Position numbers and translations under genes: made by a program
DNA from: a virus
Lineage: Duplodnaviria; Caudoviricetes
Virus record (IMG/VR): IMGVR_UViG_3300028888_000119
Span: 8,732 to 72,731 of that record
Reading direction: 5' to 3' (one strand)
DNA length: 64,000 nucleotides
The notes under the pieces: model-generated
Told to the model about the DNA's origin: nothing
Databases searched by the model: none
The model's input: only the letters and a program-made list of their open reading frames with translations
Part shown: positions 6,298 to 35,668 of the stretch, one piece after another
Numbering within the stretch: position 1 is the stretch's first letter
How the letters are laid out: each line of letters begins with the position of its first letter

Positions 6298-7806
6298 CTA
6301 AAACAGTTTCGGCGAGGAGTCCACGCTCTTTTTGACCTTGACCTTGCTCAGGATTTCCTTCTTAAAGAAAAACCAATACTTTGAACTTATATTGGCGCCA
6401 TGTTTCGTCCTAAGCACTTCAATGGCCCTCATGAATGCATCCTTCTGGTTGTCAGCATTTTTTATACACACATTGACAAGAATCCAGTTATTGCTTTTCC
6501 CTTCCAATTTCTTCCTAGCGACATAGGACTCCAGAGACTCCTCATCATCTTTGGCAACTATCTCCTGAAGTTCCGCGTTATAAACTTCTTGTTGTGTCGG
6601 CCAGTGGTATCCACAAAAAGCGCAATCTTTCCAGGAGACTGGCACAAGCTTATGGCATTGAGGGCACTCTTTAACAGGAGCGGGGCCGCCACCAGCACCC
6701 GTGTTGTGCCAAAGGCTGTATGTCCGGTCGTCCTCATATCGGCCTAAGCGCTCGTGATTCCTACCAAAATCAAGACAAATAAACTCTCCGTTCTTACCTG
6801 GTGCGGGACGACTGCAGCGCCCTAAACTTTGTAAATACTTGACAACAGATGTCGTGGAGTACATAAGCATTACAACCTTGATGCTCGGCACATCCAGCCC
6901 TGCGACTCCGATCCCGAGATTCACAAGAACATCAAACTCGCCATTCTCAAAATCTTTTAGCAACTGCTTCCTGTCGTCGCTTAACTCTGCATCTTCGTCG
7001 AAACTGTTTGACAAGAGGTATTTCGCTTTTATGCCGTGGTTGTTAAACTCTTGCGTAAGCCCGATGCATTGCTCGGAACTGCAAGCGAAGACTATCGCCT
7101 TCTCGCCTGGGCATATCCGCTGGTAGTTCTCCACGGCTCCTACATACCTTGCTTTAGACTTGAATTTTTGCGACATTTGGGACAAGTTATAATCTCCTCG
7201 GCCATAATCCCATTCGACATCATCCATCGATGGGGCATCCAGCGAGTACAGCTTACACCGACAAAGATAGCCCATGTTGATGAGGTCCTTCACACTCGGA
7301 CCAGTAACCATCGCATTGTACTCAAGGCCGGCCTGCTTCATACCTCCATACCTTGCCATTGTTGCCGTATATCCAACAACATAGCACTTGTCGGATATGA
7401 TGTCAAAGAGAAACCCATAATTACAGATATGCGCCTCATCAAGGATTAGCATCTGGACGGACTTGACATAATCCAACCATTCCGGTTTCTCAATCCTTCT
7501 CTGGAGTGTTTGAACCATCCCGACGGCAACAAGTCCGGTCGGAACTTTCCGGTGCTTTGGCGATATGATTTGAGGCTCTACGCCGCATTTTATACACTTT
7601 TCGGCATTCTGCTTCATGATTTCCTCGCGGTGCGCTAAAATCAGCGTTCTTGTGCCTTTCTGAGCCGCTAAAGCCGCAGTATATCCGAGCACTAGCGATT
7701 TCCCGGAGCCCGTCGGCATAATGCAGACAACTCGCCTATATCGGGCCAGCGCAGTCCTGATCTCCGAAACGGCCTGTTCTTGGTATTTTCTTAACTCTAA
7801 TGCCAT
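6298..7806 (-). CDS. superfamily II (DEAD/DEAH-like) helicase with Zn ribbon
   Basis: LRKYQ Q-motif, PTGSGKS, LILDEAH, YTAT, YLQSLGRCSR, CPQC...CAFC. Start moved to 7806 (MALELRKYQ) because the in-frame upstream extension crosses a tRNA-like element. Confidence 0.92.
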   Translation of the reverse strand: MALELRKYQEQAVSEIRTALARYRRVVCIMPTGSGKSLVLGYTAALAAQKGTRTLILAHREEIMKQNAEKCIKCGVEPQIISPKHRKVPTGLVAVGMVQTLQRRIEKPEWLDYVKSVQMLILDEAHICNYGFLFDIISDKCYVVGYTATMARYGGMKQAGLEYNAMVTGPSVKDLINMGYLCRCKLYSLDAPSMDDVEWDYGRGDYNLSQMSQKFKSKARYVGAVENYQRICPGEKAIVFACSSEQCIGLTQEFNNHGIKAKYLLSNSFDEDAELSDDRKQLLKDFENGEFDVLVNLGIGVAGLDVPSIKVVMLMYSTTSVVKYLQSLGRCSRPAPGKNGEFICLDFGRNHERLGRYEDDRTYSLWHNTGAGGGPAPVKECPQCHKLVPVSWKDCAFCGYHWPTQQEVYNAELQEIVAKDDEESLESYVARKKLEGKSNNWILVNVCIKNADNQKDAFMRAIEVLRTKHGANISSKYWFFFKKEILSKVKVKKSVDSSPKLF

Positions 7807-7810
7807 ATTG

Positions 7811-7926
7811 CGGACGGAGCAGGACTCGAACCTGCGACTTCGCCCGGCGCCATCTACCAGCATAGCAATCAACCGCTGCATACTCCAGTAGTGCCTGCGA
7901 CCTCTAACCAGCTGAGGTATCCATCC
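7811..7926 (-). ncRNA. tRNA-like RNA 1 with greatly extended anticodon arm (116 nt, no CCA)
   Basis: Acceptor GGATGGA/TCCGTCC, D arm CCTC-AGCTGGTTA-GAGG, T arm GCAGG-TTCGAGT-CCTGC; about 60 nt instead of about 17 in the anticodon region. Confidence 0.8.
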
Positions 7927-7993
7927 GATACGCCGCCGTTAGTGCACTCCTGGGCTCACGCGGCGGCAATCCTACTACAGCCCATTTTTCGGA

Positions 7994-16709: not shown

Positions 16710-16814
16710 TGGCTGGGAAGGGATTCGAACCCCTGTCTACCGCAGAGCGCTAACACGAAATAAACACTAAACTCAAAAAATCCCGGTCGCTGCTACCAAT
16801 TGCACCACCCAGCC
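16710..16814 (-). ncRNA. tRNA-like RNA 2 with extended U-rich anticodon arm (105 nt, no CCA)
   Basis: Acceptor GGCTGGG/CCCAGCC (perfect 7 bp), D arm TGC-AATTGGTA-GCA, T arm AGGGG-TTCGAAT-CCCTT, ACCG/CGGT closing a 41-nt insert. Confidence 0.8.
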
Positions 16815-16887: not shown

Positions 16888-16976
16888 TGGTGGAGAGGGG
16901 CGGAGTCGAACCGCCTAATGAGTTTTGGGAATGGACAAAACCCTGCTCCCTATCCGATTAGAAGCCTATCCTCTCC
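16888..16976 (-). ncRNA. tRNA-like RNA 3 (89 nt, encoded CCA, non-canonical D and anticodon arms)
   Basis: Acceptor GGAGAGG/CCTCTCC plus ACCA, T arm GGCGG-TTCGACT-CCGCC, 8-bp arm GGGTTTTG/CAAAACTC with 8-nt loop TCCATTCC. Confidence 0.75.
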
Positions 16977-19741: not shown

Positions 19742-20014
19742 TTGCACCATGATAACTCATTGACACCACGACAATTAACCAATGCAAAAAAATCACAAAA
19801 CCAGAAAAGTACCTACTACCGAGACCCTCACGCGCGCGCGAACATCAAAATTTTGAAATAAAAAAAATTTCAAAAACCCACCCGGGCATCCCTTTCCGCG
19901 CCTTGATCTGACCCCTCGCACCCCTTTCAAAAAATCGGCCGGCATACGGCTTCCAGCCTCGTATGTTGTTGATTTTCAAGTAGTTACAAATTTTTGACGG
20001 TCGCAAAAGGTCTG

Positions 20015-20038
20015 AAATGTAACATTTTTGTTACATTT
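20015..20038. repeat. perfect 10-bp inverted repeat (operator-like)
   Basis: AAATGTAACA-TTTT-TGTTACATTT. Confidence 0.8.
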
Positions 20039-20055
20039 TAAAATTTTTTGGCAAC

Positions 20056-20138
20056 TGTGGTGTGGTGTGGTGTGGTCCGGCGCCGTTTTTAAATTTTTTT
20101 AATAATGATCCCGTCACTTTTTAAATTTTTTTAATAAT
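20056..20138. repeat. (TGTGG)4 tandem followed by a 21-bp AT-only direct repeat
   Basis: TGTGG x4 at 20056-20075; TTTTTAAATTTTTTTAATAAT at 20086-20106 and 20118-20138. Confidence 0.8.
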
Positions 20139-20367
20139 CGTGTCCGGATCTGCCGGAACTTAGGTTTTTAAAATAATTTAATAAATCGTAATGTGATATT
20201 AAATTTTTTTAGATTTTGTGCCGGCTGGTTATATTTTAAAATTTTTTAAAAAGTGTGATTCGTTTATTAAAATATTTTATGTTCTTATATGCGTGCGCGC
20301 GCTATAAATAAGGTATATTTTGTAACAAAATTGTCATAAAATTGTAATGAAAATGTAACAAAAACAT

Positions 20368-20398
20368 TTTGATATTTGGAAAATAGTACCTACCTTTG
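20368..20398 (+). promoter_or_regulatory. rightward (early) promoter
   Basis: TTTG at 20368-20371, TACCTTTG at 20391-20398, 19 nt spacer. Confidence 0.8.
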
Positions 20399-20459
20399 TA
20401 ATAGCAAAAGGGGAGAAATAAAGCCCTGGAAGATGTTAAATTTTTAAAATTTAGTTATT

Positions 20460-20858
20460 ATGAAAGCGACAATTTACAAAGGTATCGAAAACATGACAAA
20501 AAAGGAAATCATTTGCGCCCGTGCCACGGAAAAGCGGAATGTTTCCGCGGAACTGGCAAATTTTGCCAACTCGTTAGAGTTTGCCGGAAAACAATTAACT
20601 GCAGTAGGGAGTGCAGCAAGAAACGCGGCAAACGCAACAAAGGGAACTTTTAAAACGTGGCTGCAAGTCGTTTCGGCTTGTTACCCTTACCAAACGGAAA
20701 ACGGGGAACTTTGCACGAAATCGAAAGGGGTGTATAAACTTCGCAAATTGTCCGGCCGTGGTGCAGCCGGGGCCGTGGTTGCTGCATCCGTTAAAAATTA
20801 CATCGATTTCAAAACGGGTCGCGTTTCTGAGTTGGTTACTATCGTAGTGCCCGAATAA
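20460..20858 (+). CDS. basic hypothetical protein, first gene of the rightward block
   Basis: 132 aa, Lys/Arg/Ala-rich, directly after the promoter. Confidence 0.7.
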   Translation: MKATIYKGIENMTKKEIICARATEKRNVSAELANFANSLEFAGKQLTAVGSAARNAANATKGTFKTWLQVVSACYPYQTENGELCTKSKGVYKLRKLSGRGAAGAVVAASVKNYIDFKTGRVSELVTIVVPE

Positions 20859-20865
20859 ATAAGTA

Positions 20866-21355
20866 TATGCCCGTGCACGGGTGAAACTTTGCACGGGTGC
20901 GAATAAATCCGGACTTTTTCGGACTGCAGAAACGCACAAAGGGACGGCCGAACGGCCCGAACGGACCTGCACAAAGCACGACGAAACAAGACGGCCCCGT
21001 TACCGCTATGATGGGGAGATAGGTAAATAGCGGACGGAACTATCGAGGAATGGCGAACTATACCTGAACGGGTACAAGCGTCGGACTGAGACCGCACGAA
21101 CGGGGCGAAAAAATCCCAATTAGTGCCATGACATTGTGTAGGTATGCCGGAGCGGTGGGTGACGCGACGAGGGCAGTAAATCCGAACAATGGATATAAAT
21201 AGCCGAACAAGATTTGGAGCGGAGGGTATCGGGATGAAACGATACTATCCGCTTTTCTTATGGGTGTAAAAGGGCGAGACGCTGGCCGACCGAATCGGCC
21301 TGCACCCACTATGATGTTTAACGAGAAGTTGCGCACGACACGAACGAAGTGCGGA
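20866..21355 (+). ncRNA. candidate large structured non-coding RNA
   Basis: About 490 nt with no credible plus-strand ORF inside a gene-dense block; at least 9 local or long-range helices found by eye (see findings). Confidence 0.55.
21218..21259 (+). terminator. terminator-like hairpin inside the RNA candidate
   Basis: AGCGGA..GTATC / GATAC..TCCGCT stem followed by TTTCTT. Confidence 0.5.
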
Positions 21356-21360
21356 AAGAT

Positions 21361-21522
21361 ATGGACGCGATCGACTGGGTTTTTATTGGGCTGGTTGCCT
21401 TGATGGTGGCAGCGATGCTTGCGCCGTTTTTCGGTGCTCCGGTGTGGACGCTGTGGGCGGTTCCGGCATTGCTGTTTGCGGTGTTGGAGGTAGGTTTTAA
21501 CATGGACAAAATAACGGAATAA
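21361..21522 (+). CDS. small membrane protein (53 aa, two hydrophobic segments)
   Basis: Translated by hand: MDAIDWVFIGLVALMVAAMLAPFFGAPVWTLWAVPALLFAVLEVGF... Confidence 0.6.
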   Translation: MDAIDWVFIGLVALMVAAMLAPFFGAPVWTLWAVPALLFAVLEVGFNMDKITE

Positions 21523-21523
21523 A

Positions 21524-21724
21524 ATGAAACTTTGGAAAGAACGAATTGCAGTAAGCGTGTTTTTCACGTTCTGCGTAGTATTGAGCATCACGATGGTGTG
21601 TTGGGGTTTTAATGTTGATAGTTATGCGTTTGCTTGCAAGGCGATTGGCTTTTGTGGGTGCATCGGTTTTCCGGTTTGCTGGCGGAATGCGTGGAACGAT
21701 TTGAGCGAGGAGGAAGAGCGATGA
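21524..21724 (+). CDS. small membrane protein
   Basis: Two hydrophobic stretches; tightly packed. Confidence 0.6.
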   Translation: MKLWKERIAVSVFFTFCVVLSITMVCWGFNVDSYAFACKAIGFCGCIGFPVCWRNAWNDLSEEEER

Positions 21725-21921
21725 ATAGGGGCCAGGCTTGGATTGTGGCGCTCTTGGGCGTGATTGCGCTTGAGGGAGCGGTTACGGCCTACGAGGTCGT
21801 GCGCATTGCGCGGAACGGTTTTGAAGTAAGTTTAACCAAGGAGCAGGCCGACGAGATCGTGGAGGAAGTAGAGGAGGCGAAGGCTGCTGCAATGGAGGAC
21901 ATGAACAATGAGAGCAATTGA
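21721..21921 (+). CDS. small membrane-anchored protein
   Basis: MNRGQAWIVALLGVIALEGAV then an acidic helix; ATGA overlap. Confidence 0.6.
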   Translation: MNRGQAWIVALLGVIALEGAVTAYEVVRIARNGFEVSLTKEQADEIVEEVEEAKAAAMEDMNNESN

Positions 21922-22165
21922 ACGAAAAGCGTTGGCGGCATTCAATGAGTGCAGGCCATTCAAGGAGAGCAACACTGAGGTTGTTGTGACCAAAGAGTCC
22001 GTGTGTGTTTATTTGTTCGGGAACATGATTGTTTGGAAAGACCGGACGACGGGCGAGGTGAGCTACAGCCATTGCGGATGGCACACACCGACGACCGCGT
22101 CCAGGTTGAGGGCGTTCGGAGCAAATGCATACATTAGGAAAGGAACATTAATAATTGAGAAATAG
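21908..22165 (+). CDS. hypothetical phage early protein
   Basis: SNTEV...VYLFGNMI...CGWHTPTTASRL pattern. Confidence 0.7.
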   Translation: MRAIERKALAAFNECRPFKESNTEVVVTKESVCVYLFGNMIVWKDRTTGEVSYSHCGWHTPTTASRLRAFGANAYIRKGTLIIEK

Positions 22166-22167
22166 TT

Positions 22168-22485
22168 ATGAACGAAGTTAAGGTTGGCGACATTCTCGCC
22201 GGAACGTTGGGTTACTCGATGGTAATCCCTTGTTTTTACGTGGTAACGAAGGTGACCGCAAAGGGCATCAAGATGTACGAGGTAGAAAAGAACATCACCG
22301 GACAGCAGGGTTATGAGACTCCGGCCGAACCGATTCGACCGAGATATGGCGAATTAGTTCCCAATGAGGTCTTTGCAAAGCCTTGCAAGGACTGGGATGG
22401 TCACTGGAAGACTGGCGGTCGCTACGACCACCGGTATGTCTCGAAGTGGGACGGACAGCCTGTTTGGGCGGATTACATGGACTAA
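22168..22485 (+). CDS. hypothetical phage early protein
   Basis: KVGDIL...GYSMVIPCFYVVTKVT pattern. Confidence 0.7.
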   Translation: MNEVKVGDILAGTLGYSMVIPCFYVVTKVTAKGIKMYEVEKNITGQQGYETPAEPIRPRYGELVPNEVFAKPCKDWDGHWKTGGRYDHRYVSKWDGQPVWADYMD

Positions 22486-22542
22486 GCGATGTTCTGCGTG
22501 GACGGGAATTATTACTTTATGAGCAAATAGGAGGAACGAAAA

Positions 22543-22851
22543 ATGAAAACGATTGAACAAGTATTGAGCGTGTGTCCGAAGCAGGACAAGGCGTATGTGT
22601 TAATGAACGGAAGATGGCACAGAATTGCCGAGCATGAGGTGCGGGCTATTCAGGTATCCGTTTGTCTCGGCTGTTTAGAGCCGCCAAGGATAAAATGCAG
22701 CAACGGGGAGGAATTGAGATGGGACAAACAACGCCCAGGGCATTTTCTCGATATTAATACCAATCTATTCCGAGTGAGTACGGAACAAACTCGGAATTTG
22801 ATGAGGGCGGAAATATTAAATGAGGAATTGGGGCGTAATGACAAGAAATAG
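22543..22851 (+). CDS. hypothetical protein
   Basis: Co-oriented; TAGGAGG 8 nt upstream. Confidence 0.65.
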   Translation: MKTIEQVLSVCPKQDKAYVLMNGRWHRIAEHEVRAIQVSVCLGCLEPPRIKCSNGEELRWDKQRPGHFLDINTNLFRVSTEQTRNLMRAEILNEELGRNDKK

Positions 22852-22857
22852 ATAGTT

Positions 22858-23052
22858 ATGAAACTCAGAGAATTGAAGCAGGGCGATAAGTTCCAGTACG
22901 CCCAGTATCCGAGCGGAGCGCCCTATGTGAAGGGCAGCAAGATTCAAGGGAGCGTGGATTTGTACTACGTGCACTCAAAATTAATCGGCTATGTATATAT
23001 GGCCGATGGTGGCGATGATGTTATCAAGATTGGAAATATTAACGAGGAATAG
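22858..23052 (+). CDS. hypothetical protein
   Basis: MKLRELKQGDKF start; tightly packed. Confidence 0.65.
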   Translation: MKLRELKQGDKFQYAQYPSGAPYVKGSKIQGSVDLYYVHSKLIGYVYMADGGDDVIKIGNINEE

Positions 23053-23054
23053 TT

Positions 23055-23351
23055 ATGGAAAAGTACAGCAACAACAAGAAATTGAACGGAGTCCTCAATG
23101 AAATCCGAGAAGACTTGTTAAGTATCCACGACACCGAGGACGAGAGCCGGAGGGAGATTGAGCACTACAAGCGCGAGTTCCCGAAGGAGATTGACTTCAA
23201 TCTGGTTCAGTATGGCAACATGCTGATTTACTACGACGACGTGAGGGCCATGTACGCCAGGCACGGATACAAGAGCATGGACCGCATGAGCGATGCCCAG
23301 GTATGGGAGACCTATAAGAGACAAGTAGGATATGTAGCAAGAACAATATAG
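23055..23351 (+). CDS. hypothetical phage protein
   Basis: QYGNMLIYYDDVR...WETYKRQVGYVAR pattern. Confidence 0.7.
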   Translation: MEKYSNNKKLNGVLNEIREDLLSIHDTEDESRREIEHYKREFPKEIDFNLVQYGNMLIYYDDVRAMYARHGYKSMDRMSDAQVWETYKRQVGYVARTI

Positions 23352-23353
23352 TT

Positions 23354-23605
23354 ATGAAAGCAACAATCAACCACGGCAAGCGGGGGACAGACATCGACAA
23401 GCTGGTTAAGGAGTATGACTTTGACTGTCCGAGAGAATACTACGGATACATTGTTGATTCGTATGTGAACGGTCATAACGATCAAGTTATCGAACTATTC
23501 AACCGGATGAAGGGAGATTTGCAAAAGAGTTTCCTCTTGAATATCGAATTCATGCAGCCGGTGTATGGAGAGAAGATTCATGATTTAATCATTAAGAGCT
23601 TATGA
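23354..23605 (+). CDS. hypothetical protein
   Basis: YIVDSYVNGH; tightly packed. Confidence 0.65.
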   Translation: MKATINHGKRGTDIDKLVKEYDFDCPREYYGYIVDSYVNGHNDQVIELFNRMKGDLQKSFLLNIEFMQPVYGEKIHDLIIKSL

Positions 23606-23835
23606 ACAAGAAAGAGATTGCCGCCTATGTGCGGAACAATGTGGAGGACTACGAGGAGCGCCTGCAGTTGGCGCTGAAGCGAATGGACCGGATGCGCTGC
23701 CCTTTGAGGATGGCGGACAACGGTTTGTATGACGAGATGTGCGATGCGGTGGAGGATTGGTGCTTTGACAACGACGTGGATTTCTACGAGATTGATCTGG
23801 AGGAGTTGATTGATGAAATCATTTGGGAGGAATGA
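23602..23835 (+). CDS. acidic hypothetical protein
   Basis: 77 aa, very acidic C-terminal half; ATGA overlap. Confidence 0.65.
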   Translation: MNKKEIAAYVRNNVEDYEERLQLALKRMDRMRCPLRMADNGLYDEMCDAVEDWCFDNDVDFYEIDLEELIDEIIWEE

Positions 23836-23971
23836 TTACGGCATTTGGCAGACCGGTTCCTCAGTTTGTGATTGACGAGCTGGTAGCGGACGGTATTCCG
23901 CTTGAAGAAATAACCACTGAGTTTATTGAAACATCCTTCGAGTATGAGCGAAGGGATAACGAGGAATAAAT

Positions 23972-24163
23972 ATGGCACAGCGAGTAACATTGCGCCAGGC
24001 TGTGGAATTGTTGAAGCAGCAGGGCATTGATGTCGAATGGAATGATTTGACGCTGGAGGACTTCTTCATTTATTTCGACCATCATTACAAGGCTGACTGC
24101 GAGAACGGCACGTTCCCGAGGGTCAGTTTCTTTTTCACTGACATCTTAGAGATTTTTAGGTAA
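23972..24163 (+). CDS. hypothetical protein
   Basis: 63 aa, abuts the next gene. Confidence 0.6.
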   Translation: MAQRVTLRQAVELLKQQGIDVEWNDLTLEDFFIYFDHHYKADCENGTFPRVSFFFTDILEIFR

Positions 24164-24670
24164 ATGAGACGAGTAAAAGTGGTATTGGTCTGCGACGAGG
24201 GATTCGTGGCGGACAGTCTGCGGGACTTTGCGACCGCATATGAGGACAACTTCGGCGACTGGCACGAGGTCGAGCATGGCAGTGGATTCCTTGAATTCAT
24301 CGAGGAGCCGGATCCTGAGCCGAGCTTGGCGGAAGTGTTCGACAAGAAGAGGGAGTCTGTTATGGACGAGAGAGAGAGGCGACGCAGGGAATTAGAAAGG
24401 ATGGATGAAGAGGAGAGGGCGTGGATTATGGAGATGGCCGAGAAACTCGCCTTCCTGCGGGAGCGTGGTTTTGAGGTCAAGACACATTTCGGAGGAATCG
24501 TGAACGGATGGCCGTACAACTACGTTCACATCGGTCGTGGACGCTGGGTGGATATTGAGGGGAGTTCTGTCCGCAGGAAAGACGGAACGCTTGACCAGTG
24601 TTCTCCGTACATCGAAAATTACAACAACCCGACGATGGAGGCTCTTCTCGAAGAGATTGCGACATGGTAG
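24164..24670 (+). CDS. hypothetical protein
   Basis: 168 aa with a central E/R-rich coiled segment. Confidence 0.65.
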   Translation: MRRVKVVLVCDEGFVADSLRDFATAYEDNFGDWHEVEHGSGFLEFIEEPDPEPSLAEVFDKKRESVMDERERRRRELERMDEEERAWIMEMAEKLAFLRERGFEVKTHFGGIVNGWPYNYVHIGRGRWVDIEGSSVRRKDGTLDQCSPYIENYNNPTMEALLEEIATW

Positions 24671-24909
24671 GCAACGCAATCTACCTGCTTTTCTGCAAGC
24701 ATCTGAGCGACGGCCAGGGCGGTCACGAGATACTGCAGACACCGCACGCGACTTTTGACGGAGCGTACGAGCACATGCAAGCAATTAAGGAACACTTTGA
24801 AAGCAAGGATTTCGAAGTGAAGGAAGTACCGGACGGGTCGTTCTATGTGACCGGGCCGTTCGGGTTCAAGAGACTTTATTATGTAGTAACAAGTACAATA
24901 GAGAAATAA
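24664..24909 (+). CDS. hypothetical protein
   Basis: Start trimmed to MVGNAIYLL (24664). Confidence 0.55.
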   Translation: MVGNAIYLLFCKHLSDGQGGHEILQTPHATFDGAYEHMQAIKEHFESKDFEVKEVPDGSFYVTGPFGFKRLYYVVTSTIEK

Positions 24910-24911
24910 TC

Positions 24912-25640
24912 ATGGCAAAGACAGAATTTAAGCACTCCTACAAGGAGTTTGGAGCGGAAGCAATCTGCACGAGGGTCCAGCAGATGCTGGCATTCAGGGA
25001 CGAAGTGGATGTGCCCGAGTCTCATGTAAAATTCAGCTACGACAATCGGAAGACTGGCGCGCTTGTTCCGTCGGTCAGTTTGATTCCGGTGGCCGACTGC
25101 GGGAACTGCGCGGTTTGCGCGAAGGGATGCTATGACGTGCGTAACGTCTGCTTCCAGAAGACAGTGCAGAAGAGCCGTGCCAACAACAGCGCGATTCTGC
25201 AGAATGACCCTGGCAAGTACTGGAGGGAGATTGAGCAGCGAATCAGCTGCCTGCGGTTCTTCCGATTCCATGTGGGCGGAGACATCAAGGACTACAGTTA
25301 CTTCGTTAACATGGTCGGTATTGCGATGAGGAATCCTCACTGCGAGATCCTGGCATTCACGAAGATGTACGACATCGTCAATGAATTCATCAGCTACGCT
25401 GGTGGGGTTGATGCGATGCCGAAGAACTTGCACATCATCTTCTCGGATTGGCGCGGGGCCGAGTTTGAGAATCCGTACAACTTGCCGGTTAGCAGCCCGA
25501 TTTGGCCGGACGGTACGAAGGGCCCGCACTGCACAGACAAGGTGTATATGTGTGAGGGTGACTGCAGTGCGTGTGCTGAGACGCGCAATGGTTGCTGGGC
25601 GGCGAAGAGAGGTGAAACAATTTTATTTGAAGCGCACTGA
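24912..25640 (+). CDS. GP88-like Cys-rich protein
   Basis: DNRKTG..VPSVSL..VADCGNCAVCAKGCY, FRFHVGGDI, AFTK, IIFS, C-terminal CEGDCSAC..GCW. Confidence 0.8.
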   Translation: MAKTEFKHSYKEFGAEAICTRVQQMLAFRDEVDVPESHVKFSYDNRKTGALVPSVSLIPVADCGNCAVCAKGCYDVRNVCFQKTVQKSRANNSAILQNDPGKYWREIEQRISCLRFFRFHVGGDIKDYSYFVNMVGIAMRNPHCEILAFTKMYDIVNEFISYAGGVDAMPKNLHIIFSDWRGAEFENPYNLPVSSPIWPDGTKGPHCTDKVYMCEGDCSACAETRNGCWAAKRGETILFEAH

Positions 25641-25672
25641 TATATGGCACAATTATTGTAGGCACGTATATT

Positions 25673-25969
25673 ATGGAAGCAATAGAAATTATAAAAGCGA
25701 TGGCGTACGATAGTGCGCTCGCAGAGAACAGCAATGTGTGGTATTTCGATTCGTCTGACGCTCAGAAGAGGGTATCTTATGTGTTCGGCGATTTTGAAAT
25801 CACCGACGGGCAGTTTGATTCCGGCTACTACTTGGCGGTATGGTCGGTAGATGCCGATAGCATTTGTCCGTTCCAAGAAGACAATAAACCGGATGTTACT
25901 CTAACAAGGGTCCACAAAGAGGACTATGACGAAGATGACAACCAAATTTATTTATGGAGGATAGATTAA
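25673..25969 (+). CDS. acidic hypothetical protein
   Basis: 98 aa, Asp-rich. Confidence 0.65.
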   Translation: MEAIEIIKAMAYDSALAENSNVWYFDSSDAQKRVSYVFGDFEITDGQFDSGYYLAVWSVDADSICPFQEDNKPDVTLTRVHKEDYDEDDNQIYLWRID

Positions 25970-25970
25970 T

Positions 25971-26198
25971 ATGAATGCGAAACGAAAAAAGGAAATCGAG
26001 AAGGTTATAAGCCGTCTCGAAGAAATCAAGGAGGAACTCGAATACATCCTTGAAGAAGAGCAGGAGGCGTATGATAATACGCCGGAAAGCTTATGGGAAA
26101 CAGATCGTTACACCGAGTCGGAGGAGGCTATCAGCGCAATGGAGGAAAGCGCAGATAACATCGGAGACGCGATTGATAATCTCAGCGACATATGTTAG
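25971..26198 (+). CDS. acidic coiled-coil phage protein
   Basis: MNAKRKKEI...EEQEAYDNTPESLWETDRY pattern. Confidence 0.75.
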   Translation: MNAKRKKEIEKVISRLEEIKEELEYILEEEQEAYDNTPESLWETDRYTESEEAISAMEESADNIGDAIDNLSDIC

Positions 26199-26327
26199 CA
26201 TGTCTTACATACGAAGGCTACACGCTGTACGGGAGGGATCTTGGAGGGTACCGCTCGTATATTGATGGCGAGTCCGTCAACTTCGATACGGTATCACAGT
26301 GGGTTCAATTTATAAATTATTTGGAAA

Positions 26328-26558
26328 ATGGCAAACGTAAGGAGACCGCTGATCGCGGTAAATGAGGAAACCGGAGAGAGAGTACGGTTCGATAGGGTCG
26401 CGGACTGCACGGATTATTTTGGTGTAAAGCGGGCCTCAGTGCTACATGCCGTAGCGATGGGGTCGTACATCAAGGGGTGGAGAATATATGACACCCCCGA
26501 AAAACTCAGAGAGAAGATCGAAGAAATAAAGAAAATCATTAAAAAGCTAGAAAAATGA
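26328..26558 (+). CDS. NUMOD1-like DNA-binding protein
   Basis: LIAVNEETGERVRFDRVADCTDYFGV...GWRI. Confidence 0.6.
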   Translation: MANVRRPLIAVNEETGERVRFDRVADCTDYFGVKRASVLHAVAMGSYIKGWRIYDTPEKLREKIEEIKKIIKKLEK

Positions 26559-26746
26559 GGGAAATAAAAAGCGCAGCTGAAATCTGCAAGAGTAGCGGGT
26601 ATGAAACCGAGTACGAATATGCATATGCTTGCGGAACATTACGCAGTATGTTAGAGTGCATCATTACTTGGATGTACGATTATGAGGATCCGAAAATGAT
26701 CCGTAACATGATTGAGAGCGTAGTCTCAAATGTAGTAGTTAAATAA
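26555..26746 (+). CDS. hypothetical protein
   Basis: 63 aa; ATGA overlap. Confidence 0.6.
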   Translation: MREIKSAAEICKSSGYETEYEYAYACGTLRSMLECIITWMYDYEDPKMIRNMIESVVSNVVVK

Positions 26747-26765
26747 TTTATAAAAACACACACAC

Positions 26766-27068
26766 ATGAAAACAAAAGAAAACCTCGTAAAACTCGGTCT
26801 CACGGAGATGCAGGCCGATGACGTGATGCTCCTGGAGAGCAAGATGCTTGAGACCGCAGTGCGGTTCCAGTTCAAGAAGAAGGACGGGTCGCTGAGAGAA
26901 GCGGTCGGAACGCTCCGCAGGGAGAAGATGGTGCAGGAGGACGGAAGCGTATGGGAGCCGGTTGGTGTAGAGAAGCCGGAGGTGCCCACATTGGTTAAGT
27001 ACTGGGATCTTACGGTCCAGGGCTGGCGGTGCTTCAATGTGTTCAACCTTGTGGCGGTGGAGGGGTAG
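26766..27068 (+). CDS. DUF2693 / WYL-like SH3 beta-barrel protein
   Basis: VRFQFKKKDGSLREAVGTL...VKYWDLTVQGWRCF. Confidence 0.85.
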   Translation: MKTKENLVKLGLTEMQADDVMLLESKMLETAVRFQFKKKDGSLREAVGTLRREKMVQEDGSVWEPVGVEKPEVPTLVKYWDLTVQGWRCFNVFNLVAVEG

Positions 27069-27090
27069 GAAATCGAAAACAAATAAAGAT

Positions 27091-27294
27091 ATGACACAGA
27101 AAGAATTAGACAAGTGGTTCAACAGTCTGGACTCCTTTGAGATCGCTGAAATCTTCCCCAGCCTTTATGAAGAGGTGATGGCATCCGCTGATCCCACAGT
27201 CAACATCAACACCTTTGTCAAGGAGGCAAAGTCTGACTGGAAGGGAATGACCAAGGAACAGAAGGAAGAATATTACCATCTGGTGGAGGGCTAA
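27091..27294 (+). CDS. hypothetical protein
   Basis: Start trimmed to MTQKELDKWF (27091). Confidence 0.6.
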   Translation: MTQKELDKWFNSLDSFEIAEIFPSLYEEVMASADPTVNINTFVKEAKSDWKGMTKEQKEEYYHLVEG

Positions 27295-27297
27295 GTT

Positions 27298-27684
27298 ATG
27301 GCACTCAATGTAAGTTATGTAAACCGCATCGGTTACTACACGAAGACCGAGAAATGGCCGGATGAGCCGGACAGGAAATTTAAGAACTGGATGTGTCACG
27401 CCAATGTAGACTTGTGGGCTGACATGTACTTCTACAAGGTATCTGAGGACCACGAGGAGTTCGGGAAGAAGCTCAAGAAAGGCGAAAAGCGTGTGCAGCT
27501 CATCGGGTTCTGGTGCGACCTTGGTCATCTCAAGCGCGCCATGAAGGATGACTGCTACCGTGGATCTGATGACTTCCACTTCTTCGCAGACCAAATGGAC
27601 GCGGACATCTGGAAGGCTGTCAAGGTCCTGGTGGAGGCTGGCAAGAAGGTAACGATAGTTAAATCACAAAAGAAAGCGAAATGA
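27298..27684 (+). CDS. hypothetical protein
   Basis: 128 aa, tightly packed. Confidence 0.65.
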   Translation: MALNVSYVNRIGYYTKTEKWPDEPDRKFKNWMCHANVDLWADMYFYKVSEDHEEFGKKLKKGEKRVQLIGFWCDLGHLKRAMKDDCYRGSDDFHFFADQMDADIWKAVKVLVEAGKKVTIVKSQKKAK

Positions 27685-27908
27685 AAATCTACGTAGGAAG
27701 ATGGGACTTGCTCCCAGAAGATATTGAAGGATACAATAGACTTTCCGAAATGGACCATTGGGATGCTTCCGAGGAGGTTGCCCGCGAGAAACGACACTCG
27801 GACGACACGTTCATCGGTGAGTATTCTGGTGAAGAATTCGAAGATACTTTCAACCAGAGTTTCACTCATTTTATCGATTCGAAAGATTACTGGATTAAAA
27901 TTTTCTAG
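27681..27908 (+). CDS. hypothetical protein
   Basis: 75 aa; ATGA overlap. Confidence 0.65.
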   Translation: MKIYVGRWDLLPEDIEGYNRLSEMDHWDASEEVAREKRHSDDTFIGEYSGEEFEDTFNQSFTHFIDSKDYWIKIF

Positions 27909-27910
27909 AC

Positions 27911-28294
27911 ATGGGACAGACTTATGATGTCAACCTCCGCGTGAGGTTCAAGGATGAGAAGGGCGCAAAGAATGCCCTTCTCGCAAAGATTGGTCGCGCC
28001 CAAGAAGAGCGCGTACTATACGACATGCAGGGCCTCCGCATGAAAGGCTTCGACTTTGATAATATTTTGGACTTGATGTCCGTTTTCTTCTGCGGATGGG
28101 GACAAAGGCTGAAGGTGGCAGACAAGAGCTGGCTATACTCCTGCTTCGATGCGAGTTACGGATGGGAGAACGTCATGATGGACGCGTTCGATAAGATTGC
28201 GCCATTCTTGGAAGATGACTCCGAGATTAAGATTTATCCCGATTCCGGTCGGGATTATGGTTATGTTGAAAACGGACAAGTAATTTGGCAGTAA
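27911..28294 (+). CDS. hypothetical protein
   Basis: FDASYGWENVMMDAF motif; tightly packed. Confidence 0.65.
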   Translation: MGQTYDVNLRVRFKDEKGAKNALLAKIGRAQEERVLYDMQGLRMKGFDFDNILDLMSVFFCGWGQRLKVADKSWLYSCFDASYGWENVMMDAFDKIAPFLEDDSEIKIYPDSGRDYGYVENGQVIWQ

Positions 28295-28295
28295 T

Positions 28296-28499
28296 ATGGC
28301 ACAAAGAGTATTATTTAGGACAAAGGCTGATGCTTACGCTGCAGCGAAGAGATCCGGCGAGCCTTTCTACACATCGAAATGTGTCTGCGATAGGCTTTCC
28401 CAAATCGCAGACGCAAAACTGGCAAGCGAGGGATGTACCGGTGAGACCGGCTGCTTTCGTGGGCCGAATGGTGCAATCTATGCATGGTGGGAGGAATAA
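28296..28499 (+). CDS. hypothetical protein
   Basis: 67 aa, tightly packed. Confidence 0.55.
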   Translation: MAQRVLFRTKADAYAAAKRSGEPFYTSKCVCDRLSQIADAKLASEGCTGETGCFRGPNGAIYAWWEE

Positions 28500-28501
28500 T
28501 T

Positions 28502-28930
28502 ATGAGAATCGACGAAGACAAACTTGAGGTCTTGCTGGAGCACATTTTCAGCCTGCACGAAGCAGAAGCCATCCTTGAGATGCTTGACGAGGACTGCGAA
28601 GAGTTTTCCGGAGAAGACATTTGCCAGTACATCGAATGGTGTCACAAGCGCTACGAGTCCGGAGAGGATACGGAGTTCGACTCTTGGCTTGAAGACCGGA
28701 AGCATCGTGTTCACATTGAAATTTTCGCCACCGAATGCGGATGCCTAATCCACGAGAAACTCGAATTCCCCAAGCGCGGTGAGGATATGGACCACGGCAC
28801 TGAGTATGAGTGGTACTACTCCCTTCGCGAAGTTACCGATGAAATCCTAGCTCTTCCGATCGGTGGGTCTATGAACTTTAAAATCCGTGACGACGTAAAT
28901 AGCCACGGAGTAATTGTTAGAACCGCATAA
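28502..28930 (+). CDS. acidic hypothetical protein
   Basis: Start trimmed to MRIDEDKL (28502); GGAGG upstream. Confidence 0.65.
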   Translation: MRIDEDKLEVLLEHIFSLHEAEAILEMLDEDCEEFSGEDICQYIEWCHKRYESGEDTEFDSWLEDRKHRVHIEIFATECGCLIHEKLEFPKRGEDMDHGTEYEWYYSLREVTDEILALPIGGSMNFKIRDDVNSHGVIVRTA

Positions 28931-28945
28931 GCAAAATTAATTTAT

Positions 28946-29176
28946 ATGACACACATTCACCAGGTGGCCGTGAAGCAGGTCACACAGCAACTAATCAACA
29001 TGCTTCAAAATAACATTATCGAGGACAATGGAACAGAGTCTTTTGAGTCTTGGTGCGAAAGTGGTGCGGTATTTGCAGAGCACCCGTCCTATGAAGCTGA
29101 GTGCATCGATCTAATGGAGAAGGTCGCACCGCTCATCGATGAATTAACTTTTACATATCTTAACTTCGGATACTAA
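28946..29176 (+). CDS. hypothetical protein
   Basis: 76 aa, co-oriented. Confidence 0.6.
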   Translation: MTHIHQVAVKQVTQQLINMLQNNIIEDNGTESFESWCESGAVFAEHPSYEAECIDLMEKVAPLIDELTFTYLNFGY

Positions 29177-29314
29177 TGTTTATTCTAATATATTTGCTCT
29201 GCGGATTGGCATTCATTCCGGAGTTGTTTAACGAAAAACGGTAGCGCACAGAGTATGTTTTTCATGATAATGCTGCTGGCTTATTTAGATGATTTGCTAG
29301 CAAGGAGGTAGCCT

Positions 29315-30085
29315 ATGGCAAAGAAGAAACAAGAGATAAAGGTCATTCAAGAGGCCCGTCCATACGTCTTGTGGCGACGCGTATCGACAACCAGCCAAGG
29401 TTCAGATGGTTTGGGTATCGCAGCACAACTTACTATAGCCACAATGTTTATGGGAAAAGACCCTGTTGAGGTTTTTACGGATGTGTATTCTGGAACGAAA
29501 CTAAAGCAGTGTGTTGGATTATGGCAGGCCATTGATTATTGTAAGCAGAACGGAGCCGTTCTCGTAGTGGCAAAGGTGGATAGATTCCGTAATGTGAATG
29601 AGGCCCTTGACGTATTGGATTGCATCGGTGAAAGAAACATCATTTTTTGCGATTGCCCAAGTTCAGACCGCTTCGTCCTCACGGTATTGTTTGCTATGAA
29701 TGAGCGCACTGCTATCATAGGTAGAATTAATACTAAGATCGCACTTGCAGAGCGCAAGAGACAAATCAAGGAAGACGGTTGCTTCATCTCTAAATCCGGA
29801 CGGATGTGCGACCATCTCGGTAGGCAGAAGGGCGACAAGAATCCCAATGGTGTTGCTGCCATGAATGAAGCCGTTACAGCTAGCGCACAAGATTGGCGTA
29901 GGACATCCGGTTTGTATACCTGGGTAACGATTCAAGTCTTGCGTGGAAGACCAAGAAAAGACATATTGGCTGAGGCGGAGCAAATGTACGAGGACAATCC
30001 GAGCGTATACTGCACCCGTGAAGGGAAACCGCTGGTCCCTGGCACCTTGTCAAGATGGTCAAGGGAAATATTGAAGAAGGGTTAA
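29315..30085 (+). CDS. small serine recombinase (resolvase/invertase family)
   Basis: YVLWRRVST catalytic Ser motif, FTDVYSG, LVVAKVDR, helix-E RTAIIGRINTKIALAERK; 256 aa, so no large-integrase C-terminal domains. Confidence 0.9.
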   Translation: MAKKKQEIKVIQEARPYVLWRRVSTTSQGSDGLGIAAQLTIATMFMGKDPVEVFTDVYSGTKLKQCVGLWQAIDYCKQNGAVLVVAKVDRFRNVNEALDVLDCIGERNIIFCDCPSSDRFVLTVLFAMNERTAIIGRINTKIALAERKRQIKEDGCFISKSGRMCDHLGRQKGDKNPNGVAAMNEAVTASAQDWRRTSGLYTWVTIQVLRGRPRKDILAEAEQMYEDNPSVYCTREGKPLVPGTLSRWSREILKKG

Positions 30086-30102
30086 TTTGGTATAAAATTT
30101 GC

Positions 30103-30300
30103 ATGAAAATGAACAAGAAAACGATTCTTAGTATAGTATGCATCGTCTTAATATTATTCGGTCTATACGTAATATGCACCGACGCTATCTATCGGTGGTT
30201 CTCTGCCGGTCAGTATGCGTTTAATATTTGTTATTTTGCCATGTTACCGATCCTTATTGCAGGATCTGGCTGGGTGGAATTTACTGAAAAATTGAGATAG
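30103..30300 (+). CDS. small membrane protein
   Basis: Two hydrophobic segments; start trimmed to 30103. Confidence 0.55.
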   Translation: MKMNKKTILSIVCIVLILFGLYVICTDAIYRWFSAGQYAFNICYFAMLPILIAGSGWVEFTEKLR

Positions 30301-30301
30301 T

Positions 30302-30604
30302 ATGAATTATTATCGTGTTAGGGCAAATTTGTCCGGATATTATTCTTGTGAGGCTCCCAATCTCTATTACGGTATGGGGTCTGGAATAGATGATTATGAG
30401 GTTCCTACAAATTGTGACGCTGACTGTCGCGTTTCTGCAAAATCTGAGGTAGCCGCGAAGAGACTTGTAGAAAGATACCATTTTAAATCCATTGATTTTT
30501 GTCTTGAGTGCATTCAGATAATCGGAGTCGAGAAGATTGGAGAGGATGCTGATGATGATATTAATGAAGAGGTTTACGATATTAGTTACGATGGCAGGGC
30601 GTAA
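30302..30604 (+). CDS. hypothetical protein
   Basis: 100 aa, acidic C-terminus. Confidence 0.6.
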   Translation: MNYYRVRANLSGYYSCEAPNLYYGMGSGIDDYEVPTNCDADCRVSAKSEVAAKRLVERYHFKSIDFCLECIQIIGVEKIGEDADDDINEEVYDISYDGRA

Positions 30605-30627
30605 GTCATAGCGGGTAGGTTAGTCAT

Positions 30628-30652
30628 GGGCGGTTCCTGTCGCCGCCCTTTT
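30628..30652 (+). terminator. intrinsic terminator
   Basis: GGGCGG / CCGCCC stem followed by TTTT. Confidence 0.6.
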
Positions 30653-30737
30653 GAATTACACCCCCGGGAAACAAAAGACAAAATAGAAATTTGACTTCCA
30701 AAAATCCACCTCCGGGGGTTTATTTAAACAATTCACT

Positions 30738-31022
30738 ATGACATTTGAAGAAAAGGTAGAACAAACAATTTGTTTTGCTTTGAAAGACTCAAAGCAGCTG
30801 TATTGCGGCAAGATCGGATTTGTTGCCAAAGATCTAATGAACGGGTATGTCGTCAAGGTGTGGTATCGCACCATCGGAGACGAGAACACCCTCGTAAAGA
30901 AAGAAGTAATTTCAGATGAGCAATACGACTGGGAGAAAGCCGGTTGTTCCAATGCGGAAGAATATCGGGTGTATCTCAACCGGCAGATGTGGGCTGAATT
31001 CTCCGCCGGTTACTGTCTTTAA
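30738..31022 (+). CDS. hypothetical protein
   Basis: 94 aa, co-oriented. Confidence 0.6.
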   Translation: MTFEEKVEQTICFALKDSKQLYCGKIGFVAKDLMNGYVVKVWYRTIGDENTLVKKEVISDEQYDWEKAGCSNAEEYRVYLNRQMWAEFSAGYCL

Positions 31023-31036
31023 AATTTGATTTAGAT

Positions 31037-31348
31037 ATGATATCTTTAATTTTAACAATGGGCTGTATTCTTTTTCTCCTTATAGGAATTGCAATTGCTT
31101 CTTGGGGAGGAATTGATATACAGTGTGAGGGTCCAGACATCAAGAACATAATAATGTTTTTGGTCGGAATAGGAATGATTGCTTTTGGCCTTTTCTCTGT
31201 AGTTAAAGCAAGTGAGTATTATCATGAAAAGGAAAGGCCCGAAACAGAGATTATAGTTTCTGTTCCTGCACAAATTGATACTATTATTACTATAAAAAAT
31301 AGTATACCAGATACTTCTTACGTATACAAATTTAACAGTAAAGAATAA
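31037..31348 (+). CDS. membrane protein (two N-terminal hydrophobic segments)
   Basis: Hydrophobic helices then VPAQIDTIITIKN. Confidence 0.6.
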   Translation: MISLILTMGCILFLLIGIAIASWGGIDIQCEGPDIKNIIMFLVGIGMIAFGLFSVVKASEYYHEKERPETEIIVSVPAQIDTIITIKNSIPDTSYVYKFNSKE

Positions 31349-31350
31349 AT

Positions 31351-32052
31351 ATGAACACAGAAGAAAAGGCCCGAGCCTACGATGAGGCTTTAGAGAGAGC
31401 AAAACAAGTGTTAAGTAATAACTGCACAGAAGTAGAAAAACTCTGCCTTGAATGTGTATTTCCGCAACTTTCTGAGAGCGAGGACGAGAGAATAAGGAAG
31501 TGGCTCATAGAAATGGTTGAAGTATTTAGAAAAGCAAATCCAACCAACGCAGAACATAATGGGGATTGTAGTGAAGCTATTGCCTACCTTGAAAGACAAA
31601 AAGAACCGGCTCCTGTTCCAGACAAATTTAGTGGACTTAAGTCGCTAATGTTACAATATCTCCAATCTGCTGCAAATCGTAAAGACGACGCGGAGATTGA
31701 AGATGATACAGATTTATATGGTCGAAAGATTCTTGACTATGTATGGAAGTATGATGAAAAGCAGAAAGAGCAGAAGCCCGCAGAGTGGAGCGAAGAGGAT
31801 AACAATGCCCTTAAATATATCCACGAACTCATCAGTTTTGGTTATACAGAGAATTTCTTTGATGCGCAAACCGCCGCTGATATGAGGACGTGGTTAAATA
31901 GCCATTTTATTCATTGGAAACCCAGCGAGGAGCAGATGTGGGTGTTCTTAAAGGCGAATCCCGTAAATCTAATGCCTGAAGAATTATCCATATATAAATC
32001 GCTTTGTAATGACCTTCAAAAGCAGAGTGGAGAGATGAAAAGTAAACACTAA
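31351..32052 (+). CDS. mosaic phage protein with KPAEWSEED / WKPSEEQM motifs
   Basis: YDEALERAK, SESEDERIRK, AYLERQKE, KEQKPAEWSEED, WKPSEEQM. Confidence 0.75.
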   Translation: MNTEEKARAYDEALERAKQVLSNNCTEVEKLCLECVFPQLSESEDERIRKWLIEMVEVFRKANPTNAEHNGDCSEAIAYLERQKEPAPVPDKFSGLKSLMLQYLQSAANRKDDAEIEDDTDLYGRKILDYVWKYDEKQKEQKPAEWSEEDNNALKYIHELISFGYTENFFDAQTAADMRTWLNSHFIHWKPSEEQMWVFLKANPVNLMPEELSIYKSLCNDLQKQSGEMKSKH

Positions 32053-32076
32053 TAGGTATGGTAGCACTGTAGTATT

Positions 32077-32289
32077 ATGAAAAGTTTTTGGTATTGGGAA
32101 ATTCACTTTGAGCATCACAAATTCGATATAGTAGTCAAGAAGCCGCACAAGATTCTGCTTGTAAAGGATGAGAATGACATCCTAAAGTATAAGTTTGACT
32201 TGACTAATATGGGCGTCGAGGAATGTGATACCTATGAAAAGTTACAAGAATTATTACCTCCCCCGTATTATGAATATAATAATGTATAG
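32077..32289 (+). CDS. hypothetical protein
   Basis: 70 aa, co-oriented. Confidence 0.55.
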   Translation: MKSFWYWEIHFEHHKFDIVVKKPHKILLVKDENDILKYKFDLTNMGVEECDTYEKLQELLPPPYYEYNNV

Positions 32290-32293
32290 CCTT

Positions 32294-32539
32294 ATGAAAG
32301 CCCCAAATAAAATATATTTACACGGCTATCCAGATAAGCCATTTCTTTGTCAAGATTGGGATGTTGCTCCTACAAAGAGAGTTGTTAGAGGGCAACAAGC
32401 GGAGAATATTGCCTACATTCGCAAGGATATGGTTGTTGATGCAATTAAACTTGCTTATGGAAAAGTAAGTATGAATCCGTTTGACTGTTCCGAGGCATTT
32501 GAAGAACTATTAAACAAGGTTGGATATGAAATACATTGA
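32294..32539 (+). CDS. hypothetical protein (MKxPxKxxLH...YIRKD family)
   Basis: Start trimmed to 32294; shares motifs with 34414-34650. Confidence 0.65.
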   Translation: MKAPNKIYLHGYPDKPFLCQDWDVAPTKRVVRGQQAENIAYIRKDMVVDAIKLAYGKVSMNPFDCSEAFEELLNKVGYEIH

Positions 32540-32690
32540 CGATGACGCAGAATATGCGCAGGAGCAGCAGGAAGGACATACGAGGATAGAGGAACAAAAG
32601 GGTGGATGTTTCTACTGCGTTTACTTTCAAGGGTGCCATACAGCAGTATGGCGCAACGGGCAGACTTGTGACTTGTTTGAAGGAAAATAA
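32526..32690 (+). CDS. 54-aa MKYID-QEQQE cassette protein
   Basis: Translated by hand: MKYIDDDAEYAQEQQEGHTRIEEQKGGCFYC...; shares its first 16 nt with the gene at 32703. Confidence 0.55.
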   Translation: MKYIDDDAEYAQEQQEGHTRIEEQKGGCFYCVYFQGCHTAVWRNGQTCDLFEGK

Positions 32691-32702
32691 TAGATAGGCA
32701 TT

Positions 32703-33266: not shown

Positions 33267-33301
33267 GAATACATGTAAATAGAAACACAGGAGGACTGAT
33301 T

Positions 33302-33631: not shown

Positions 33632-33672
33632 GCCAGCCATCTCTACGAACTTAGTCTTAAAGCAAGAAAGGT

Positions 33673-33933: not shown

Positions 33934-33935
33934 GT

Positions 33936-34226: not shown

Positions 34227-34231
34227 AGTAA

Positions 34232-35667: not shown

Positions 35668-35668
35668 A

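Follow-up and report, generated by a model that had tools for sequence, protein, structure and literature searches.

A predicted non-decoding tRNA-like RNA gene directly ahead of a helicase start codon in a rumen, probably Bacteroidales, phage

The stretch of DNA analyzed here, referred to below as the window, comprises 64,000 nucleotides (nt) of a 72.7-kb IMG/VR virus record (IMGVR_UViG_3300028888_000119, positions 8,732 to 72,731; Caudoviricetes). The minus strand of the window carries a replication and packaging operon with primase-helicase, methylase, exonuclease, helicase, terminase, and portal genes. Within this operon, and directly before the gene for a superfamily-2 helicase, lies a 116-nt element that has the acceptor stem, D arm, and T arm of a tRNA and a long irregular hairpin where the anticodon arm should be. 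The element was first noticed in a first-pass annotation made from the letters alone, and its parts and surroundings are collected in Table 1. The gene leaders of this genome are mostly AT-rich (mean GC 0.34) and contain Shine-Dalgarno-like motifs in only 11 of 87 cases, which fits a Bacteroidetes host; in addition, one relative of the helicase carries the NCBI label Bacteroidales. The two genes that adjoin tRNA-like elements have 0.60 GC in the 20 nt upstream.

Table 1. Positions of the tRNA-like element, its parts, its neighbors, and the further tRNA-like elements of the window.
Feature	Positions	Strand	Remarks
Superfamily-2 helicase gene, 502 aa, with ResIII, DEAD, and Helicase_C domains	6298..7806	minus	start ATG 7806-7804; relatives begin M(A)LELRKYQ
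Spacer CAAT (4 nt) between discriminator and start codon	7807..7810	minus	identical in L158, L203, L205
Discriminator G	7811	minus	followed by CAAT
Acceptor stem, 3' strand TCCGTCC	7812..7818	minus	pairs with GGATGGA; no encoded CCA
T arm GCAGG / TTCGAGT / CCTGC	7819..7835	minus	read from the sequence
8-nt direct repeat GTCGCAGG, 3' copy (variable loop and T-stem 5' strand)	7831..7838	minus	
Variable loop AGTC	7836-7839	minus	precedes the T arm
61-nt irregular hairpin in the place of the anticodon arm (closing UCGC/GCGA, GGC/GCC, 7-bp helix, apical hairpin)	7840..7900	minus	folds; 95-98% identity in L158, L203, L205
7-bp helix, 3' strand CTGGTAG	7854..7860	minus	same four-copy comparison as the 5' strand
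7-bp helix, 5' strand CTACTGG	7885..7891	minus	pair 40:69 is U.G, U-A, C-G across copies
8-nt direct repeat GTCGCAGG, 5' copy	7894..7901	minus	within chance expectation
D arm CCTC / AGCTGGTTA / GAGG, G18 and G19 present	7901..7917	minus	D stem invariant in four copies
Acceptor stem, 5' strand GGATGGA	7920..7926	minus	7/7 pairs with 7812-7818; changes in L158 preserve pairing
tRNA-like RNA gene, 116 nt, canonical tRNA core with non-canonical arm	7811..7926	minus	Rfam RF00005; parsed stems pair 7/7, 4/4, 5/5
Stable hairpin GCCGCCG...CGGCGGCG	7931..7967	minus	4 nt before the 5' end of the tRNA-like gene
Second anticodon-less tRNA-like gene	16710..16814	minus	Rfam 39.3 bits; ATG of a 102-aa open reading frame 1 nt after the discriminator
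Third tRNA-like element, acceptor stem and T arm only, encoded ACCA, no abutting open reading frame	16888..16976	minus	sub-threshold match to the ends of the tmRNA model only

The D and T arms had been described as textbook, and in the parsed sequence both stems are indeed fully paired. The Rfam tRNA model (RF00005) scores the element at 39.6 bits, above the gathering threshold of 29, and the alignment places 55 nt of the element where the model expects 13. The remaining dimensions are those of a tRNA: a 7-base-pair (bp) acceptor stem, followed by TA and a 4-bp D stem with G18 and G19, a variable loop within the usual 4 to 5 nt, and a 5-bp T stem with a TTCRA loop. What is missing is the 5-bp anticodon stem with a 7-nt loop, U33, and R37, since the 17-nt arm is replaced by the 61-nt irregular hairpin, as the first-pass annotation had claimed; its claim that the element adjoins the helicase start was likewise correct. 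ARAGORN at its default settings reported neither a tRNA nor a transfer-messenger RNA (tmRNA) in the whole window. The three helices proposed for the arm (TCGC/GCGA, GGC/GCC, and CTACTGG/CTGGTAG) all exist, and the first two are part of the minimum-energy fold. For the third, ViennaRNA prefers a shifted register in the window sequence; the 7-bp register originally drawn is the only one compatible with all four natural copies of the element (that of the window and the three described below). At pair 40:69, the window has U.G, L158 has U-A, and L203 and L205 both have C-G, which is suggestive of the 7-bp register. The covariation over these four close copies is not significant, as 140 of 500 shuffles do equally well, and one substitution among the relatives breaks C30-G84 of the TCGC/GCGA helix.

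What is retained at this locus was examined in related phages, which are designated here by L handles. Helicase searches returned three further versions of the same element, each directly before the helicase ATG: one in L158 (helicase 71% identical in protein), one in L203 and L204 (87%), and one in L205, L206, and L207, which belong to the same 90% cluster and were seen in 10 contigs. This comparison, which had been proposed as a check, found the insert to be conserved. The arm (7900-7840) is 95-98% identical to that of the window in all three relatives, against 83-100% for the tRNA frame, 66-83% for the helicase DNA, and ∼38% for the sequence upstream of the element, which is unrelated right up to the 5' end. 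The arm is thus the best-conserved stretch of the locus and, on this comparison, is itself sequence-constrained in the sub-lineage of the window. In L158, the changes in the acceptor stem are neutral with respect to pairing (A7-U66 becomes G7-C66 and U4.G69 becomes U4-A69). The additional acceptor pair between C(-1) and G73 that had been suggested is possible in the window and is not conserved, as the three relatives have T, G, and G at position -1.

A wider family was found by pattern and Rfam searches in related phage records; a search with a T-arm pattern was too unspecific to use. In the orthologues, the acceptor stem reads GGATGG[GA] with [TC]CC[AG]TCC, the discriminator is G, the 3' trailer is CA..ATG, and the core is as in the window. 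The arms, by comparison, are mutually unrelated in sequence. The arm of L191 is GGC-AAAA-GCC, that of L185 and L200 is CCGGT-AAA-ACCGG, that of L183 and L189 has a 10-nt loop, and those of L199 and L197 are 52 nt and 66 nt long, respectively. Two further elements that lie directly before the helicase differ in their acceptor stems; one, with a 19-nt loop, occurs in L004, L016, and L154, and the other, with a 52-nt loop, in L021. A canonical anticodon loop is present in no family member, and the stretch from the D arm to the T arm measures 16-71 nt versus 23 nt in a normal tRNA-Asn from another phage. Of the 176 stem cells compared across 11 variants, 166 hold standard pairs, and many positions show several types of pair (CG, GC, GU, and AU at T2; AU and CG at T3; CG and GC at D1; AU, GC, and GU at acceptor pair 7). 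U8, A14, the GG of the D loop, the TTCGAG T loop, and an RRGTC-like variable loop are kept across the family, while the helicases of these phages are only 58-89% identical in protein; retention of the tRNA core extends to phages at 58-70% helicase protein identity. The family frame is nearest to the normal tRNA-Asn(GTT) of phage L196, and the element probably derives from a tRNA-Asn-type gene.

Of the 11 ATG-proximal members, 8 are followed by an open reading frame (ORF) of at least 100 aa whose start lies 1-6 nt behind the discriminator, and the gene found there varies between phages (helicases, Dam-type and cytosine methylases, and others). All ATG-proximal members read N73-C-A rather than CCA; the lone encoded ACCA, in the element at 16976-16888 of the window, has no abutting ORF. 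Each phage has several such elements, and a stable hairpin, often followed by a T run, stands close upstream of nearly every family member. When ARAGORN was run on the family elements, it returned nothing, '???', or implausible isotypes such as Phe-AAA. Taken together, these comparisons of sequence indicate that the element belongs to a family of tRNA look-alikes that do not decode and that occur throughout this clade of rumen phages, whose hosts are probably Bacteroidales. Among the longer arms, the 52-nt arm of L199 (in the element starting GGATGGGTTACTAAG) recurs at ∼87% identity in L026 (1501-1618), closed in both by GCAGA/TCTGT, and the acceptor and T stems of L026 differ. This suggests that the 52-nt arm may be an exchangeable or separately selected module. 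A proposed homology between the L197 arm and that of the window was unconvincing. The related records also contain tRNA-model matches of near-normal length with anticodon-arm loops of 4, 12, or 17 nt (L030, at 72 nt, and L025, L028, and L031); among the parsed tRNA-model matches of these records, only Met(CAT) and Gln(TTG) look canonical.

An over-long tRNA gene could also be a decoding tRNA with a short intron that is removed by host enzymes. There is a precedent in the Lak megaphages of Prevotella, in which tRNA genes contain conserved inserts described as 'enigmatic' introns (Devoto et al., bioRxiv 10.1101/356790). This is the closest published case to ours: both concern phages of Bacteroidales hosts (probable hosts in our case) with over-long tRNA genes whose inserts are near-identical across samples and which standard bacterial tRNA finders miss. 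Moreover, ARAGORN with the -i option proposes an Ile(GAT) tRNA with a 22-nt intron in the window element, and RtcB is present in a control genome of Bacteroides thetaiotaomicron. However, the ARAGORN solution has a mismatched stem, must place the intron at 32/33, and gives an Ile tRNA a variable arm of 27 nt. In an exhaustive scan of single loop excisions, an arm counted as canonical if at least 4 of its 5 stem positions paired, its 7-nt loop carried U33 and R37, and the variable loop measured 4-5 nt; no excision yielded such an arm in the window, L158, L203, or L205. The Lak genes differ in this respect, as an isotype and an anticodon are predicted for them once the insert is removed. The insert-free orthologues are not normal tRNAs of the same isotype, given that their short-arm loops have 3, 4, or 10 nt, and orthologues with loops of 3-4 nt cannot decode. 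Searches of the phage genome for RtcB, RNA ligase, and splicing endonuclease found none. We therefore consider a spliced, decoding tRNA extremely unlikely. A group I intron was rejected because the insert is ∼55 nt versus the at least 200 nt that the core requires, and because Rfam gave no match at E up to 10. A tmRNA was rejected as well, as ARAGORN made no such call and the sole match of the Rfam tmRNA model, itself below threshold, is to another element, that at 16888-16976. An attP-type tRNA fragment does not apply because both tRNA halves are present. Finally, stop-codon recoding or a suppressor tRNA was discarded, since readthrough of TAG, TGA, or TAA merges no ORFs at 20-38 kb of the window.

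The 8-nt direct repeat that flanks the insert was found exactly at the positions first reported and had been read as the sign of either a conformational switch or a duplication scar. Neither proposal stood up to analysis. A repeat of at least 8 nt occurs in 9.5% of shuffles of the element, and this one is broken in L205 and not evident in other family members. Forcing the 5' copy onto the 3' strand of the T stem costs 3.9 kcal/mol, and this pairing has an ensemble probability of ∼0.3%, so the element is probably not a conformational switch. It is not a duplication scar, because deleting the insert together with one repeat copy would leave a tRNA without any anticodon arm. The same data bear on the idea that the element regulates translation in cis, with the tRNA-like fold, or the alternative fold formed through the repeat, hiding or exposing the helicase start without cleavage. 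The structure ends 4 nt from the ATG and must affect ribosome access, and the repeat does offer the T-stem 3' strand an alternative partner. The energy of that fold and the chance-level status of the repeat argue against such a regulator, as does the lack of a match to a ligand-binding or other known family; Rfam found no known RNA family in the arms of the window element or of related elements. This explanation is, in our estimation, very unlikely.

We also considered whether the element acts in trans, as a tRNA mimic or decoy that binds a host factor such as a synthetase, a modification enzyme, a tRNA-targeting defense nuclease, or EF-Tu, and that is perhaps charged by an enzyme that ignores the anticodon. 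In this case, the position next to a start codon would be incidental. The conserved elbow, acceptor stem, and G73 discriminator, the occurrence of several elements per phage, and the conserved arm sequence all speak for this reading. However, a mimic leaves unexplained why start codons lie 1-6 nt downstream of most members, and the element lacks the anticodon loop by which anticodon nucleases recognize their substrates. The analysis turned up no partner gene, and the enzymes named above (RtcB, RNA ligase, and splicing endonuclease) are absent from the phage genome. We regard a mimic or decoy as rather improbable.

The interpretation that we favor, with a probability of roughly 0.45, is that the element is a selected, non-decoding tRNA-like RNA gene that would be excised by host RNase P and RNase Z, thereby trimming the flanking mRNAs and releasing a stable tRNA-framed RNA. 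What the family keeps of a tRNA, namely an acceptor stem, a D/T elbow, and a variable loop, is exactly what the maturation enzymes (RNase P, RNase Z, and the CCA-adding enzyme) recognize. The element lies exactly between two functional RNAs on the same strand, and cleavage by RNase P at the 5' side and RNase Z at the 3' side is predicted from the intact elbow and acceptor stem and the absence of an encoded CCA. In the proposed pathway, which is the simplest model, the element would be transcribed within the polycistronic RNA of the replication-gene operon. Host RNase P would then cut at its 5' end, leaving the upstream mRNA with a protective hairpin end, and RNase Z would cut after G7811, which would free a helicase mRNA whose leader is only CAAU in place of a GC-rich structured one. 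The excised 116-nt RNA would be stable through its likeness to tRNA, with the anticodon arm swapped for an arbitrary hairpin. The 61-nt arm is probably the payload of this natural 'tRNA scaffold'. A broader version of this proposal holds that Bacteroidales phages use tRNA cores as excisable scaffolds, each providing a hairpin 3' end upstream, a near-leaderless next mRNA, and a stable RNA with an exchangeable trans-acting arm (here, the conserved 61-nt hairpin) directed against a host or phage target. We consider this generalization doubtful.

Several observations weigh against excision by tRNA maturation enzymes, and some of them are shared with the view that the element is a degenerating tRNA gene without an RNA function, kept as an intergenic spacer and as a homology 'linker' for recombining gene cassettes and tRNA halves. 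First, the version in L205 (686-801; also in L206 and L207) is a chimera joined inside the T arm, with the 5' half and arm of the window type and a 3' acceptor strand, CACGCCA, that resembles that of a different element. Its acceptor stem has only 4 of 7 pairs and its T stem 4 of 5, yet the lineage persists in contigs from several samples. The acceptor stem of L208 is imperfect as well. Second, in L020, L022, L166, and L170, all that is left ahead of the helicase ATG is the final ∼20 nt of the element, and other close relatives, L003 among them, lack it entirely; helicase expression therefore does not depend on the element. The broken-acceptor and remnant lineages argue, by comparison, against an essential role. 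These 3' remnants consist of the 3' strand of the T stem, the 3' strand of the acceptor stem, G, and CA(A), with the stop codon of the upstream ORF just ahead. Third, recombination inside the T arm is frequent, which gives weight to a recombination linker or pseudogene, and exchange with genuine tRNA genes, as opposed to selection, could account for part of the stem covariation described above. Different genes stand behind the same ...G-CAAT-ATG junction, and the unrelated upstream sequences that end at the 5' end of the element also fit the linker view. Fourth, the arm does not exceed its dinucleotide shuffles in folding stability (z = -0.73 for the arm and -1.48 for the inner hairpin), and therefore thermodynamics shows no structure beyond chance. 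Fifth, searches with the arm did not point to a target: among antisense targets in the phage genome there was only one 11-nt match versus ∼1.4 expected by chance, and searches elsewhere gave no match in IMG/VR, nothing useful among cultured phages, and one chance-level match in a Rhodobacterales genome. An exact search of IMG/VR for the 5' half was also without a match. Lastly, to our knowledge, translation of leaderless mRNAs is not established in Bacteroidetes.

The first-pass annotation had held that a structured insert argues against simple decay. Taken from folding energy alone, this argument is not supported by the values just given. The conclusion that this is not simple decay is upheld on other grounds, because three relatives share the arm at 95-98% identity although their helicase genes are down to 66-83%. 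Neutral decay would also strike the T loop, the D loop, and the stems, whereas only the arm varies in the family and nearly all stem cells still pair. The short arms form tidy and stable hairpins and do not look like debris, and the window-type arm is the best-conserved part of its locus. On balance, a decaying tRNA gene that serves only as spacer or linker is unlikely in our view. In some of L201, L203, L205, and L208-L211, cassettes for Dam-type or N6/N4 methyltransferases lie between the tRNA-like element and the helicase, and NUMOD4/HNH homing-endonuclease genes follow the helicase in this set. The junction of element and helicase looks like a hot spot of cassette exchange.

Additional features surround the element. 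Immediately before it, window positions 7931-7985 on the minus strand form a structured region with a long-range closing helix, GCCGCCG/CGGCGGC, and a possible pseudoknot partner, GGGCT/AGCCC. A structured region is likewise found just upstream of the tRNA-like elements of L189, L191, L199, L200, and L208. The closing helix varies between sub-clades, being ATCGGTGCGG/CCGCACCGAT followed by TTTTT in others, and its position is constant. This region could be a terminator, a 3'-end protector, or a separate RNA element. On the other side, automatic gene calls run the helicase ORF into the tRNA-like gene and thereby add 19-35 codons to it (6298-7881 on the minus strand in the window; likewise in P0122 and P0136), where the frame is open by chance, and the database proteins P0122 and P0136 bear a spurious N-terminus. 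The 527-aa ORF that starts at 7881 on the minus strand is an artifact of this open frame and does not encode a longer helicase N-terminus, because its ATG reads AGG in L203 and because family members with short arms have no such frame. Elsewhere in the window, the insert of the second anticodon-less gene is U-rich and 41 nt long, and hairpins with GNRA loops lie between it and the third element. On the plus strand from 20000 to 38000, no ORF exceeds 256 aa whichever single stop codon is reassigned, and the region looks like an early-gene block of many small genes.

tRNA-like processing signals are known in other settings, including the mascRNA at the 3' end of MALAT1, the TMER units of murine gammaherpesvirus 68, and the 'tRNA punctuation' of mitochondria. 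As in these systems, a tRNA-shaped, non-decoding element sits at the joint of two functional RNAs, and the upstream RNA would end in a protective structure at the expected RNase P site. Another shared trait is that no CCA is encoded, so RNase Z could cut after the discriminator. In contrast to these eukaryotic, herpesviral, and organellar examples, the phage element lies inside an mRNA and abuts a start codon, its arm is long and conserved in sequence, and its cleavage is a prediction. A further parallel is the engineered tRNA scaffold of Ponchon and Dardel, in which the acceptor, T, and D arms are kept, the anticodon stem-loop is replaced, and the product is processed and stable in E. coli (PMC3753655). 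The architecture is identical, including a hairpin-closed insert, and it is the tRNA shape that gives the scaffold its precise processing and stability; unlike the man-made scaffold, the phage element is natural and its arm is only a putative payload. Together with mascRNA, TMER, and mitochondrial punctuation, we rate the scaffold as the best functional analogy. The tRNA-like domain of tmRNA and the bacterial Y RNA YrlA are also anticodon-less tRNA mimics that are recognized through the region of the acceptor and T arm. However, a true D arm is absent from tmRNA, which has an mRNA module in addition; in YrlA, the acceptor end is closed and the free ends lie in the stem on the anticodon side; and neither Rfam model matches the element at 7811-7926.

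Anticodon-less tRNA-like genes that abut phage start codons were not described in the literature that we searched. If the element is cut by the tRNA maturation enzymes, it would represent a tRNA-type punctuation of a bacteriophage operon and a natural counterpart of the laboratory tRNA scaffold. Such cleavage would also account for genes that begin immediately after a GC-rich structure when the leaders of this host group are otherwise AT-rich and poor in Shine-Dalgarno motifs. More generally, the findings point to a class of small phage RNAs that is missed by tRNA finders and by gene callers, the latter of which extend the helicase ORF through the element, and they bear on the unexplained over-long tRNA genes of other Bacteroidales phages.

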